A DNA stretch of 39,910 nucleotides from UHGV virus genome UHGV-1354558, one strand, 5' to 3'. Both the position numbers and the translations under genes were made by a program. Numbering within the stretch: the first letter of the stretch is position 1; every line of letters starts with the position of its first letter. This document shows positions 16,261 to 19,334 of the stretch, one piece after another. The notes beneath the pieces are model-generated. The model did no database searches and had not been told where the DNA came from. It saw only the letters and a list, made by a program, of their open reading frames with translations. This DNA comes from a virus.

Positions 16261-16746
16261 TTATCTAATGTTGCTGCTACTGTTGCATGTGACGGTGTTT
16301 CCAAATCCTGAATTGCAGTTTGTATATGTGTCAACGCGCGTTGGGTAAGGTTGAGTTATAACAGGCTGGCGCGCTTTTTGCTCGATCGCTTGCATTGTGT
16401 TTACAGCCTGATAATTCAATAAAGCCTGCTGGAATGCTTGGCTTTGTGCTATTTGTTGGGCTTGTTCTTGGCTTTGTAATTGAACATAAAGATTCTGAAG
16501 CTCAAGTCTTGCCTGTGCGTCACTTATCTTGCCTTCATCGACACCTTGCCCGAGCATCTTTGCAGCAAGGACATACAGCTTAGGTGTTGGTGCTGATGCC
16601 ATGCGTGAGTCGTTTTTCACACTGGCATCAAGGCAATTAGCCATATCGCTAAGCTTTTGATAGCGTTGTTCGCAACTTGCTTGATAGTCACTTACTTTTG
16701 CGCATCCAACCAGCAGAAGCGGGATAATTAACAGTGATTTTTTCAT
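16261..16746 (-). CDS. putative outer-membrane lipoprotein (moron; candidate superinfection exclusion)
   Basis: MKKSLLIIPLLLVGCAKV... has a signal peptide and lipobox LVGC, with GGAGAG upstream. Co-oriented and downstream of mnt. Confidence 0.65.
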   Translation of the reverse strand: MKKSLLIIPLLLVGCAKVSDYQASCEQRYQKLSDMANCLDASVKNDSRMASAPTPKLYVLAAKMLGQGVDEGKISDAQARLELQNLYVQLQSQEQAQQIAQSQAFQQALLNYQAVNTMQAIEQKARQPVITQPYPTRVDTYTNCNSGFGNTVTCNSSSNIR

Positions 16747-16816
16747 ATGGTTAACTCTCCTTAGTTTTTCACAGGATATCATGAAGGCAATGCCATTTTA
16801 GCCGGAAACTAGATTT

Positions 16817-17083
16817 CTATGTTTCCTTTTTATTATTGCTATACATGGTCTTAAGCGTATCAAAGACAATTTTCTTAACCATCTCAGATTGTTGTTCTGC
16901 TATGCGCTCTGCATCGTCAATGTAAACGGATGCAGAGCTTTGTTTAGCCAATGATTCTTCAATCGCTGCAATTATCTCTGAGTTCAGCGACCTGTTATTC
17001 ATCTTCGCACGCTGTTTAATTTTCGCGTGAAGCTCATGCGGAAGTCTCAAGTGAAACTGCGCCTCGTCGTATTTGCTGTACAT
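16817..17083 (-). CDS. mnt: Mnt-like ribbon-helix-helix repressor
   Basis: MYSKYDEAQFHLRLPHELHAKIKQRAKMNNRSLNSEIIAAIEESL...AERIAEQQSEMVKKIVFDTLK resembles P22 Mnt (Arc/MetJ fold). Start taken at the internal ATG with AAGG upstream. Confidence 0.8.
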   Translation of the reverse strand: MYSKYDEAQFHLRLPHELHAKIKQRAKMNNRSLNSEIIAAIEESLAKQSSASVYIDDAERIAEQQSEMVKKIVFDTLKTMYSNNKKET

Positions 17084-17156
17084 CCTTGATGCCTCACCAA
17101 ATGGGTGGAATGGCATCGTAACCTACTGGATAAATACTCAATAGTACCATTTCGGT

Positions 17157-17179
17157 ATGCAACCACATCATGGTTGCAT
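17157..17179. promoter_or_regulatory. 23-bp inverted repeat, candidate Mnt operator
   Basis: ATGCAACCA-catca-TGGTTGCAT with perfect 9-bp arms, lying between the divergent mnt and tailspike genes. Confidence 0.4.
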
Positions 17180-17204
17180 CATATCATTCGTCTGGAGCAA
17201 TGAA

Positions 17205-19334
17205 ATGTCAGATATCACCGCAAATGTTGTGGTAAGCATGCCTTCGCAACTCTTCACTATGGCGCGTTCTTTTAAAGCCGTAACTAATGGCAAAATTTAT
17301 ATCGGTAAAATTGACACGGACCCGGTAAATCCTGAAAACCAGATTCAGGTTTATGTGGAAAACGAAGACGGCTCTCACGTTCCTGTTTCGCAACCAATCA
17401 TCATTAACGCTGCTGGTTACCCTGTATATAACGGACAGATTGCCAAGTTCGTAACTGTGCAAGGCCATTCTATGGCTGTTTATGATGCATACGGTGCGCA
17501 GCAGTTCTATTTTCCGAATGTGCTAAAGTATGATCCAGATCAGTTTAAGGGCAATCTCCTGAGCGAAGATCACTCACTTGGCGACTCTCTAGTCATGCAT
17601 AACCCACAGTTTGTCGATAGCACATCGACCATTCTCTCAAAAAAGCTAACTATCGACCTGAGGACGCTTACAGACTACGGGTTTGCTGAGGGAAACACCG
17701 GTGCTCAGAACAAAGCAGCATTCCAGGCTGCCATTGACGATGCAGTCATGGCGACGGAAATTGTAATACCACCAGGGGCGTATATCTGCGACCCCGGTGT
17801 TACTATCGGGAATTCAAATATCATCCGCATCCGCGGTGCTGGAATGTATCAAACGGTGATTTTTACCGCTGGCGAGGCGGACCCATTAATCACCCAGGCG
17901 TCAGGTAAAATAGTAACGTTCTGTGAGTTTATTGATTTTGGCTTGAATGGTAACTATAAAGCAAACACTCTTCTTAACCTGACAGAAGCTAACCACATAA
18001 AAATAATCAGGGTGCAGTTTGCCAACACCATTGGCAATGCGCTTGTCCTTAATGGATATTCGAATGATATCGAAGGCTGCCGATTCATGGAGAATAATGG
18101 CAACGCTGTTACTTTGGGTGGCGTGTTAAACAATACGAACTTCGTGAACAATAGGGTGTATGGTAACAACGTTGGCGGTTTGATTCTCCATCCGTCTTAT
18201 GACGAGGGTGGTTTAAGTGTCAGAATTCAGGGGAATGACTTTGAACTGAATAAATCATTCGGGTTAATGGCTTACGGCATTAAAGGATTAAACATTATTG
18301 ATAATTACTGGGAGCGCAACGGGGAAAACGGATTTAATTATCCGGACATCGGTGGTGTTACCGTTAAAGCCGATTTGCATCTAATTGCTAACAGCTATTC
18401 TATAACCCCAAATGCCGTGAAGGCTAATGACGTGGTTCGTGTTTGCGGCAACCATCAGACCGCGTTTGGGTACGGTAACACTCTGGGGAATCAGGACGCT
18501 TTTGTGTTCACCAACTACGCAAAAAATCTTTGCGTGGAGCATAATGAGATGCTCGACCCGTCTAAAAACAACGCCCTGATAAGCGTATACAACAGCCATT
18601 ACGTAACTATCGTCACTGATGAAGTGCATATCCGAGGAAATAGCCGTAATGACATTGGTTTTATCGGTGCTGCGCAGGATGTTTACGACCACATCAGATG
18701 GGGGCATCTGATTCGCAACTTTAACGCGCCGAGACCAATAAACCTGTTAGAAAATAGCATGTTGTCATGGTTCCGATTTGCGGGGTCCACAGGTTCTTTA
18801 TTGAAAACAACAAATTATTTTAACAACAACTATTCATTTTCCGTAACGGACGGGGACTCTGTATGGGTAACTACTATTGACCTTTCGATACGTCCAGAGT
18901 TAAAAGATAAATATATTTGGTTCGGTGCTTGGGTAAACGACCAGGGTGCTTCCGCAAAATTACTTTTTGGCATCAACAGCAAATACTCTGACGACCTAAC
19001 TGTAGTAGCCGGGAGTGGCTCATGGAAATTTGTAAGTTGCTGCACTTACGTAGGGCCAGGGGATACCGTTATCAGGGCTAGTATCCAAAAAATAGGCTCA
19101 GGAGCCGATGTTCTTATAAACTCCCCCGTAATAGCGGAACTAGGTGTCTCCTATACGGACGTACAGTCGAAACCTACCGTATTCCGTGCGCCATCAGTGC
19201 CAACTACCGGGACGTGGAATGTTGGGGAGCGTGTTATCAATAGCGCACCTGCTTCAGGACAACCAAAGGCATGGACATGCAATATTGCAGGTGGTCCCGG
19301 GATTTACAGCTTCCTTTCTGAGGGGAATTATTAA
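17205..19334 (+). CDS. tailspike protein (P22 gp9-type N-terminal domain plus distinct beta-helix receptor domain)
   Basis: N-terminus [47 protein letters not shown]... is the conserved P22-type head-binding domain. The remainder has parallel beta-helix style repeats ([32 protein letters not shown]). 709 aa; GGAG upstream. Confidence 0.9.

Follow-up and report, generated by a model that had tools for sequence, protein, structure and literature searches.

A reduced ant moron between the gene 16 homologue and the tailspike gene of a P22-like phage: a lipoprotein gene, an orphan mnt and a probable tailspike-leader stem-loop

The virus genome UHGV-1354558 (39,910 nucleotides; the window, meaning the whole stretch of DNA that was analysed) is a complete P22-like (Lederbergvirus) genome with mosaic kinship to the Escherichia phages Dewey, APC_JM3.2 and IME10, and the present work concerns the interval that separates its gene 16 homologue from its tailspike gene, the homologue of gene 9. 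The left border is a gene 16-type ejection gene whose product showed tblastn similarity to P22 gp16; the right border is the tailspike ATG at 17205, which is preceded by a Shine-Dalgarno sequence (SD) GGAG at 17194-17197. Between these borders lie a lipoprotein gene and an mnt homologue, both on the minus strand and running in the same direction as each other and against the late operon, followed by a perfect palindrome with 9-bp arms (Table 1). An initial annotation, made from the letters of the window, had described this pair of genes between the gene 16 homologue and the tailspike, the palindrome at exactly 17157-17179, and a lipobox LVGC with a glutamine-rich mature part in the lipoprotein. 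All of this was confirmed, with corrected gene boundaries. The absence of arc and ant, also part of that annotation, was borne out by tblastn searches in which P22 Arc, Ant and SieA found no match anywhere in the window.

Table 1. Positions of the genes and control elements of the interval and of its two borders, in window coordinates (aa, amino acids; nt, nucleotides)
Feature	Position	Strand	Remarks
Gene 16-type ejection (DNA transfer) protein	13631..16258	+	N-terminal SLT transglycosylase domain (Pfam SLT, 2.8e-25)
Lipoprotein gene, 161 aa	16261..16746	-	Start MKKSLLIIPLLLVGC; SD AAGGAG at 16762-16757
Candidate extended -10 promoter of the lipoprotein gene	16773..16781	-	TGATATCCT (TGaTATCCT), about 27 nt 5' of the ATG; putative
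Orphan Mnt-type ribbon-helix-helix repressor, 88 aa	16817..17083	-	RefSeq-style start MYSKY; further ATG upstream at 17116
Candidate mnt promoter (Pmnt), TTGAGT-15 nt-TACGAT	17115..17141	-	Homologous to P22 Pmnt TTGAGA-17-TATCAT; putative, weak
Probable Mnt operator	17145..17157	.	TACCATTTCGGTA, core TACC-N5-GGTA; position homologous to the P22 mnt operator (Omnt); adjoins the palindrome
Palindrome	17157..17179	+	ATGCAACCA-CATCA-TGGTTGCAT; 9-bp stem, 5-nt loop; ends 25 nt before the tailspike ATG
Tailspike	17205..19334	+	P22-type head-binding domain and beta-helix (Pfam Head_binding, 1.2e-66; Beta_helix)

The interval between genes 16 and 9 was named the "ant moron" by Villafane et al. (2008), who distinguished ten types among sixteen P22-like genomes and described mnt-only forms as well as forms, in ST64T and ST104, that consist only of mnt and one gene of unknown function (PMC2629481). 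The genes found there in the window are likewise non-morphogenetic, and the gene content varies among relatives. The interval is thus a reduced ant moron, an ordinary locus holding a common and already described kind of accessory-gene insert. Among 5426 complete E. coli genomes, at least 101 carry the layout of lipoprotein gene, Arc-family gene and tailspike gene over at least 80% of the query. In phages, mnt is accompanied by the lipoprotein gene and an extra gene in Gally and vB_EcoP-720R6 and stands alone in Sf101 and IME10, and Salmonella phage VSe13 shares parts of the layout. According to the initial annotation, an orphan mnt-lipoprotein unit had replaced the immI region of P22; instead, the lipoprotein gene fills the sieA slot and immI has shrunk to mnt, which is a variant described earlier (PMC2629481). 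Its statement that the interval is AT-richer than its neighbours held on one side: the G+C content was 0.39-0.45 against 0.51-0.53 in the upstream ejection genes, whereas the 5' part of the tailspike gene (0.44) is similar to the interval and the downstream gtr genes (0.30-0.34) are richer in AT.

Taken as a whole, the locus is best explained as the reduced ant moron of a Lederbergvirus phage of E. coli in which three separable modules stand side by side: the lipoprotein gene, the orphan mnt and a stem-loop in the tailspike leader. We regard this explanation as probable. The region has been described since the 1980s and was compared across phages in 2008, and the locus in the window is a common mosaic variant of it.

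The lipoprotein gene and the possible roles of its product

The predicted product begins with a signal peptide whose lipobox, LVGC, agreed with the pattern [LVI][ASTVI][GAS]C, and among 68 homologues Gly14 was nearly invariant and four cysteines (C15, C25, C38 and C154) were invariant. A longer open reading frame (ORF) reaching 16782 was considered and set aside, as it does not begin at the homologous start. The mature part comprises a four-helix bundle with the cysteine pair C25 and C38, a Q-rich helix and a C-terminal Cys-x-Cys loop, all of which are conserved, as is an alanine at position +2; the AlphaFold2 model reached a predicted local distance difference test score of about 80 at residues 18-94 only. 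Under the standard Lol sorting rule, alanine at +2 leads to anchoring in the outer membrane. From its sequence, the lipoprotein is therefore predicted to be outer-membrane anchored.

The protein belongs to phrog_6067 (1.6e-110), a family of unknown function, and had no Pfam, NCBIfam or PADLOC family, the sole hit being a sub-threshold match to GspK. We found 89 homologues across the Enterobacterales, nearly all named "hypothetical protein", in Escherichia, Citrobacter, Serratia, Cronobacter, Klebsiella, Pectobacterium, Yersinia, Morganella, Pantoea and Tatumella. A search of genome contigs with the lipoprotein profile returned only five species representatives, and a wider profile search returned 232 clusters of proteins mostly 100-180 aa long. 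All 14 inspected members of these clusters were lipoproteins with the same motifs, and none of ten that were scanned had a Pfam match. The few remote relatives for which genomic context was available are accessory cargo, either of integrative, satellite-like elements or of an island: their places were 3' of the primase in an integrase-AlpA-primase element, two genes from a T5orf172 gene; beside an integrase; and in an island rich in toxin-antitoxin genes.

The initial annotation had grouped the lipoprotein gene and mnt in an operon. This was not upheld, because the two genes assort independently. In prophages of Yersinia ruckeri and Morganella morganii the lipoprotein gene is the only one between gene 16 and the tailspike gene; Providencia and Tatumella morbirosei combine it with mnt alone, and Tatumella terrea with the complete mnt-arc-ant set. 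Conversely, of 80 IMG/VR loci with the window-type Mnt, about half carry the lipoprotein gene and about half do not. Since each gene is found without the other, they are independent modules and not an obligate operon. In all contexts examined, the lipoprotein gene was placed directly after gene 16 and antisense to it, which is the position of sieA in P22.

The lipoprotein gene also has a conserved candidate promoter of its own, of the extended -10 type (Table 1). A TGnTAT-type motif followed by an A-run was observed 5' of the gene in most genera, namely in VSe13, Yersinia, Morganella (TATAAT), both Tatumella loci and a metagenome-assembled genome, and it was present even at mnt-less loci; Gally and Providencia lack it. 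In Gally, whose lipoprotein is 97.5% identical to that of the window, the gene had 70 normalised reads in lysogeny broth (LB), compared with 13 for mnt and a prophage median of 15.6, and its log2 value, about 6.1 in LB, climbed in macrophages to about 10.3 (PMC9928086 supplement). Because the motif is conserved across genera and the Gally copy is transcribed above mnt, the lipoprotein gene appears to be expressed in the prophage from its own promoter, although the promoter calls in the interval are consensus guesses. No terminator was called between mnt and the lipoprotein gene in the window, so that read-through from Pmnt may add to its transcription.

What the product does has to be judged mainly from the place of its gene. 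P22 SieA maps to the slot after the ejection genes, with escape mutations in ejection proteins (PMC10883804), and the exclusion determinant STnc6030 of BTP1 maps to the same slot, again with escape mutations in ejection proteins (PMC7067206). Because the lipoprotein gene occupies the slot of both determinants and the escape mutations to both lie in ejection proteins, it is plausible that the lipoprotein is a superinfection-exclusion factor; protection at the level of the envelope against incoming phage is our best guess, although we hold it tentatively and somewhat short of even chances. The product is predicted to undergo export and lipidation, with a probable anchor in the inner face of the outer membrane; from there it could shield the lysogen, for example by hindering the delivery of DNA from incoming phages. 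Several results weigh against this assignment: a fold search returned generic helical bundles only, PADLOC recognised no defence family in the lipoprotein (or in Mnt), and the induction of the Gally gene in macrophages suits a role in host interaction as well as it suits exclusion.

The last point makes a host-interaction role a serious rival. The lipoprotein gene could be a gene of lysogenic conversion and, rather than act against phages, benefit the host in the animal or inside macrophages by way of envelope or stress functions; the lambdoid-phage lipoproteins Bor and Iss have a role of this kind. Besides the macrophage induction, the wide spread of carriers among gut and pathogenic Enterobacterales and the lack of a match to any known defence family would suit such a role. 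It accounts less well for the constant location of the gene in the exclusion slot beside the ejection genes and for remote relatives that travel as cargo of satellite-like elements near toxin-antitoxin genes, and no similarity to Bor or Iss was detected in the Pfam, phrog and NCBIfam searches. We consider the host role possible but a little less likely than exclusion. With either role, a lipoprotein found in the exclusion slot of many E. coli, Salmonella, Yersinia and Morganella prophages is an easily accessible candidate for an anti-phage or host-interaction factor.

A separate observation was made in BTP1 (LT714109). The 155 bp that separate its injection gene from its tailspike gene contain, on the minus strand at about 14012-14083 and inside the region of the STnc6030 antisense RNA, a 23-codon ORF with a strong SD, GGAGGGTTT-ATG, that encodes the hydrophobic peptide MERDLLNFVFLIFGLVVGKLLFA. 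The published single-nucleotide polymorphisms that escape STnc6030 are non-synonymous and lie in the injection protein, as for P22 SieA (PMC7067206). The exclusion factor of BTP1 might be a small membrane peptide instead of, or besides, the STnc6030 RNA.

The orphan Mnt repressor and its probable operator

The mnt product matched Pfam PF03869 (Arc) with 1e-14 and 54.5 bits (cut-off 20.4), identifying the N-terminal ribbon-helix-helix domain, and PF11423 (Repressor_Mnt) with 6e-13 and 48.6 bits (cut-off 20.9), identifying the C-terminal tetramerisation helix. In the PDB it matched 1MNT (2.2e-19) and 1QEY (4.3e-7), and it is 49% identical to P22 Mnt. The protein is an orphan in that it has no ant to control: the next rightward gene is the tailspike gene, and the window holds no Ant or Arc homologue. 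The window-type mnt was intact and had the same N-terminus in about 200 loci.

The spacer between mnt and the tailspike gene was aligned with the annotated immI control region of P22. In this alignment, P22 Omnt (AGGTCCAC-G-GTGGACCT) corresponded to AGTACCAT-T-TCGGTATG in the window and to AGACCAC-A-GTGGTCT in Gally. The core TACC-N5-GGTA occurs in a single copy in the window, directly after a conserved CTCAATA that carries the Pmnt -35. When the DNA-reading strands of the Mnt proteins were set beside the sequences at the Omnt position, the two correlated: HFNFR in P22 goes with GGTCCAC/GTGGACC, QFNLR in the Gally/ST64T type with AGACCAC/GTGGTCT, QFHLR in the window type with TACC/GGTA, and QFHL in Tatumella morbirosei, whose Mnt is 42% identical, with TAC-N7-GTA. 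In VSe13 and five further loci that combine the window-type Mnt N-terminus with a different tailspike leader, TACC/GGTA is kept and the palindrome is absent. These comparisons point to TACC-N5-GGTA as the most likely binding site of the window Mnt, and not to the palindrome beside it, where the initial annotation had suspected that Mnt might act. Against this assignment stand the low symmetry of the site, in which only four of eight positions per half are symmetric whereas the operators of P22, the ST64T type and T. terrea are perfect palindromes of 8-9 bp, and the mutation of its right half in about 10% of loci. The corrected site of an Mnt with altered specificity would be useful for studies of ribbon-helix-helix recognition.

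On the rightward side, what aligns with P22 Pant, ATGGCA-15-TAAATA, is degenerate, and a consensus scan found no rightward promoter between mnt and the tailspike gene, so Mnt probably no longer controls a strong rightward promoter. Now that Pant has decayed and ant is lost, an orphan Mnt bound to TACC-N5-GGTA, next to the -35 of the mnt promoter, would be left with autoregulation. It could also silence, in trans, the ant gene of a superinfecting relative that stands under the same type of operator; no ant-carrying phage with the window operator type was found. We infer from the biology of P22 that autoregulation and this trans-repression are the most likely remaining roles.

Alternatively, the orphan mnt may be a functionless remnant of a former immI region that is being lost. 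The decay of Pant and of the Arc operator, the loss of any ant to control and the mutated operator halves would be expected of a remnant. The published work on Gally bears on the question in both directions: a mnt deletion mutant had no phenotype in macrophage survival, the one assay done, which also counts against a retained function, but mnt was induced 40-fold in macrophages. The ORF is moreover intact and its recognition strand unchanged in the roughly 200 loci, and orphan mnt genes with perfectly palindromic operators have been kept in several lineages (ST64T and Gally types). On balance, we think it unlikely that the gene is a mere remnant, and prefer the autoregulatory and trans-repressing roles.

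In two IMG/VR loci (L052 and L176), an insertion sequence of about 1.3 kb, resembling the IS3 family and carrying two overlapping transposase ORFs, lies exactly between the operator-like site and the palindrome, with GTATG duplicated. The insertion in L052 shows that the operator-like site and the palindrome are separable. The palindrome was also considered as a scar of an insertion sequence or of recombination; the L052 insertion is functionally uninformative in this respect.

The palindrome in the tailspike leader

The sequence of the palindrome is unique in the window. It is one of three different perfect inverted repeats there whose arms reach 9 bp or more (five by script count, two being tallied twice), and dinucleotide shuffles gave a mean of 2.3 by script count, so that a 9-bp palindrome is not rarer than chance in 40 kb. 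As a bare statistic the palindrome is therefore weak, and what gives it weight is the comparison with relatives.

For this comparison, 286 loci supplied 89 unique tailspike leaders, among which 13 representative types were examined. In eight to nine of these types the strongest hairpin ended 19-27 nt before the tailspike ATG, and a hairpin as good or better at that position appeared in at most 3% of the dinucleotide shuffles of each type. The position is shared by stem-loops of different sequence: ATGCAAYCA-CATCA-TGRTTGCAT in the window type (25 nt before the ATG), CCGTAGC-CAT-GCTGCGG in the P22 type (27 nt), GCTGCGCAAGT-TTA-GCTTGTGCGGC in a third type (B-type) that includes BTP1 (23-25 nt), and further, different sequences in Morganella (25 nt), Yersinia (27 nt) and Providencia (25 nt). 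In P22 the hairpin lies downstream of the ant terminator and far from Omnt, and hairpins are likewise present in BTP1, which has no moron, and in the mnt-less Yersinia and Morganella prophages; the ST64T-like mnt-only loci have the order Omnt, short spacer and hairpin, as in the window. As far as the leader sequences indicate, the hairpin is independent of mnt, and the link between Mnt and the palindrome drawn in the initial annotation was not supported by this comparison.

The pairing pattern indicates the strand on which the structure would form. In the P22-type hairpin 95.4% of cells were paired and three of seven pairs showed compensatory double changes, and in the third type 96.7% of cells were paired over 13 pairs. 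At pair 7 of the window type, most relatives have U.G and others U-A; the window itself has C-G. Pairs that form on the plus strand only (G.U) outnumbered those that form on the minus strand only (A.C) by 34:4, 30:1 and 10:0, and this excess points to a structure on the tailspike-sense RNA and argues against a symmetric DNA site. The palindrome is most likely an RNA hairpin of the tailspike gene and not a binding site of Mnt. Such a stem-loop, about 25 nt before the start codon, would probably act at the level of the mRNA by affecting its stability or processing, or by shielding the ribosome-binding site from the variable sequence upstream. Three findings count against an RNA hairpin unconnected with Mnt: the variants within each type are closely related, so that the counts overstate the number of independent events; all 115 copies of the palindrome in IMG/VR adjoin a window-type mnt module; and the left arm (ATGCAAC) belongs to a sequence common to all such modules. 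There may be a second Mnt contact at this left arm.

The model of the initial annotation, in which this Mnt variant has its operator in the palindrome and from there controls a tailspike promoter, draws on the same association with the window-type Mnt and on the location of the palindrome between mnt and the tailspike gene. The arms contain AACCAC and ATGGTT, which resemble half-sites of the P22 and Gally types and are about one helical turn apart, and the common T.G position has been turned into a perfect pair by two different mutations. However, it is the adjacent site that aligns with P22 Omnt; the palindrome is absent in at least six loci with identical Mnt recognition residues; hairpins of unrelated sequence lie equally far from the ATG in phages that have other Mnt types, a distant full immI (P22) or no mnt; the conserved T.G positions are asymmetric as DNA and paired as plus-strand RNA; and no rightward promoter was detected. 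We judge this model improbable. That the palindrome has no function, being a chance repeat or the junction product of the arc/ant deletion, is suggested by the expected frequency of such repeats and by a left arm derived from the mnt-side module and a right arm derived from the tailspike-side sequence, but is very improbable given the conserved hairpin position across unrelated leaders, the compensatory changes within types and the strong excess of plus-strand over minus-strand wobble pairs.

An intrinsic terminator was also tried and rejected. The flanks of the palindrome are CATATCATT on the plus strand and ACCGAAATG on the minus strand; because no T-run follows the hairpin, it is not a terminator, and none was called at 17157-17179 on either strand. 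An Rfam search of 16000-17500 gave chance-level matches only (E of at least 2.3, far below the gathering scores), and literature searches found no description of a hairpin in the tailspike leader.

If the RNA hairpin is real, a leader stem-loop conserved in position would explain how expression of the tailspike remains robust despite the constant reshuffling of the sequence upstream. The lipoprotein family and the leader stem-loop are thus two modest leads. A more novel reading would be that the lipoprotein founds a new class of exclusion or defence factors acting on the ejection conduit and that the stem-loop is an undescribed, structure-conserved, cis-acting RNA element of the Lederbergvirus late operon. 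We consider this reading doubtful. If it were true, the lipoprotein class would be periplasmic, anchored in the outer membrane and found both in the sieA slot and as cargo of satellite-like elements, and the leader stem-loop would set the stability or translation of the tailspike mRNA whatever moron lies upstream.

Further observations concern the same leader. On the minus strand at 17183-17211 there is a promoter-like sequence, CTGACA-17-AATGAT (9 of 12 positions), that is common to all relatives; its -35 overlaps the tailspike start codon, and a transcript from it would start inside the palindrome. This leftward site recalls the antisense starts reported at the 5' end of the BTP1 tailspike gene (PMC7067206). 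In three IMG/VR loci (L017, L063 and L084) and in E. coli M160133, the tailspike ORF is interrupted after its first 15 nt by an antisense gene for an HNH endonuclease (166-179 aa). A new leader and start lie behind the insert, with the old palindrome leader left as a remnant, and in the L017 and L063 form this new leader has a hairpin of its own, 21-24 nt from the ATG. In P22, a stretch of about 20 nt of the tailspike leader (AAAATTCACCGTAGCCA..) is directly duplicated at 6043-6067 and 6154-6178. The copies flank an insert of about 90 bp in which a separate hairpin (GACCTACAAAAAAATTGTAGGTC) is found; in most relatives a single copy directly follows the ant terminator.

Neighbouring features and comparison with known systems

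Downstream of the interval, a perfect palindrome with 10-bp arms, AAGAGAGGGA-AATA-TCCCTCTCTT, was found at 19340-19363 between two convergent genes, the tailspike gene (stop at 19334) and a gtrC-like gene (end at 19372). P22 has a bidirectional terminator annotated at this place, and the palindrome is probably one as well. The minus strand at 19372-22171 carries an O-antigen modification cluster that encodes a 506-aa multi-pass protein, GtrB (Glycos_transf_2) and GtrA, and an integrase follows at 22522-23682. The 506-aa protein occupies the gtrC position and had no Pfam match; its gene, with a G+C content of about 0.31, is the most AT-rich part of the window. Another perfect palindrome with 10-bp arms, TCTCTAATAC-TGAC-GTATTAGAGA, lies at 32505-32528 inside the ORF 32003-32893 of the early-right region. 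We would guess that this is the replication region and that the palindrome may be an origin or an operator element.

The closest known counterpart of the interval is the ant moron, or immI region, of P22-like phages, complete in P22 (sieA-orf59a-mnt-arc-sar-ant) and with mnt-only forms in ST64T, ST104 and Gally. Both lie between the gene 16 and gene 9 homologues, run against the late operon and have a G+C content below that of the structural genes, and the place and orientation of mnt, the Pmnt -35 and the position of the operator are kept. Unlike the P22 locus, the interval of the window lacks arc, sar, ant, sieA and orf59a and has the lipoprotein gene where P22 has sieA; its Mnt reads with the residues Q-H-R, and the core of the putative operator is TACC/GGTA instead of GGTCCAC/GTGGACC. 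At the level of the repressor, the window Mnt shares with P22 Mnt (1MNT, 1QEY) the N-terminal ribbon-helix-helix domain, the C-terminal tetramerisation helix and a direction of transcription divergent from the former Pant. It differs in having no antirepressor to control, a putative operator of far lower symmetry and an aligned Pant that is degenerate.

The lipoprotein gene shares with the determinants of P22 SieA and BTP1 STnc6030 the orientation, the slot that immediately follows the ejection genes and expression from the prophage. It has no sequence similarity to SieA by tblastn; SieA is described as an inner-membrane protein, whereas the window lipoprotein is secreted and predicted to be anchored in the outer membrane, and STnc6030 is described as an RNA.

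Cor of phi80 and N15, Llp of T5 and Ltp of TP-J34 are small phage or prophage lipoproteins that act at the envelope against incoming phage. Compared by description, they are small phage-encoded envelope lipoproteins, as is predicted for the product in the window; no homology to them was found, and no search aimed at it was made. Their targets are FhuA or the tape-measure protein of long-tailed phages; podoviruses like P22, in contrast, use the O-antigen and ejection proteins.

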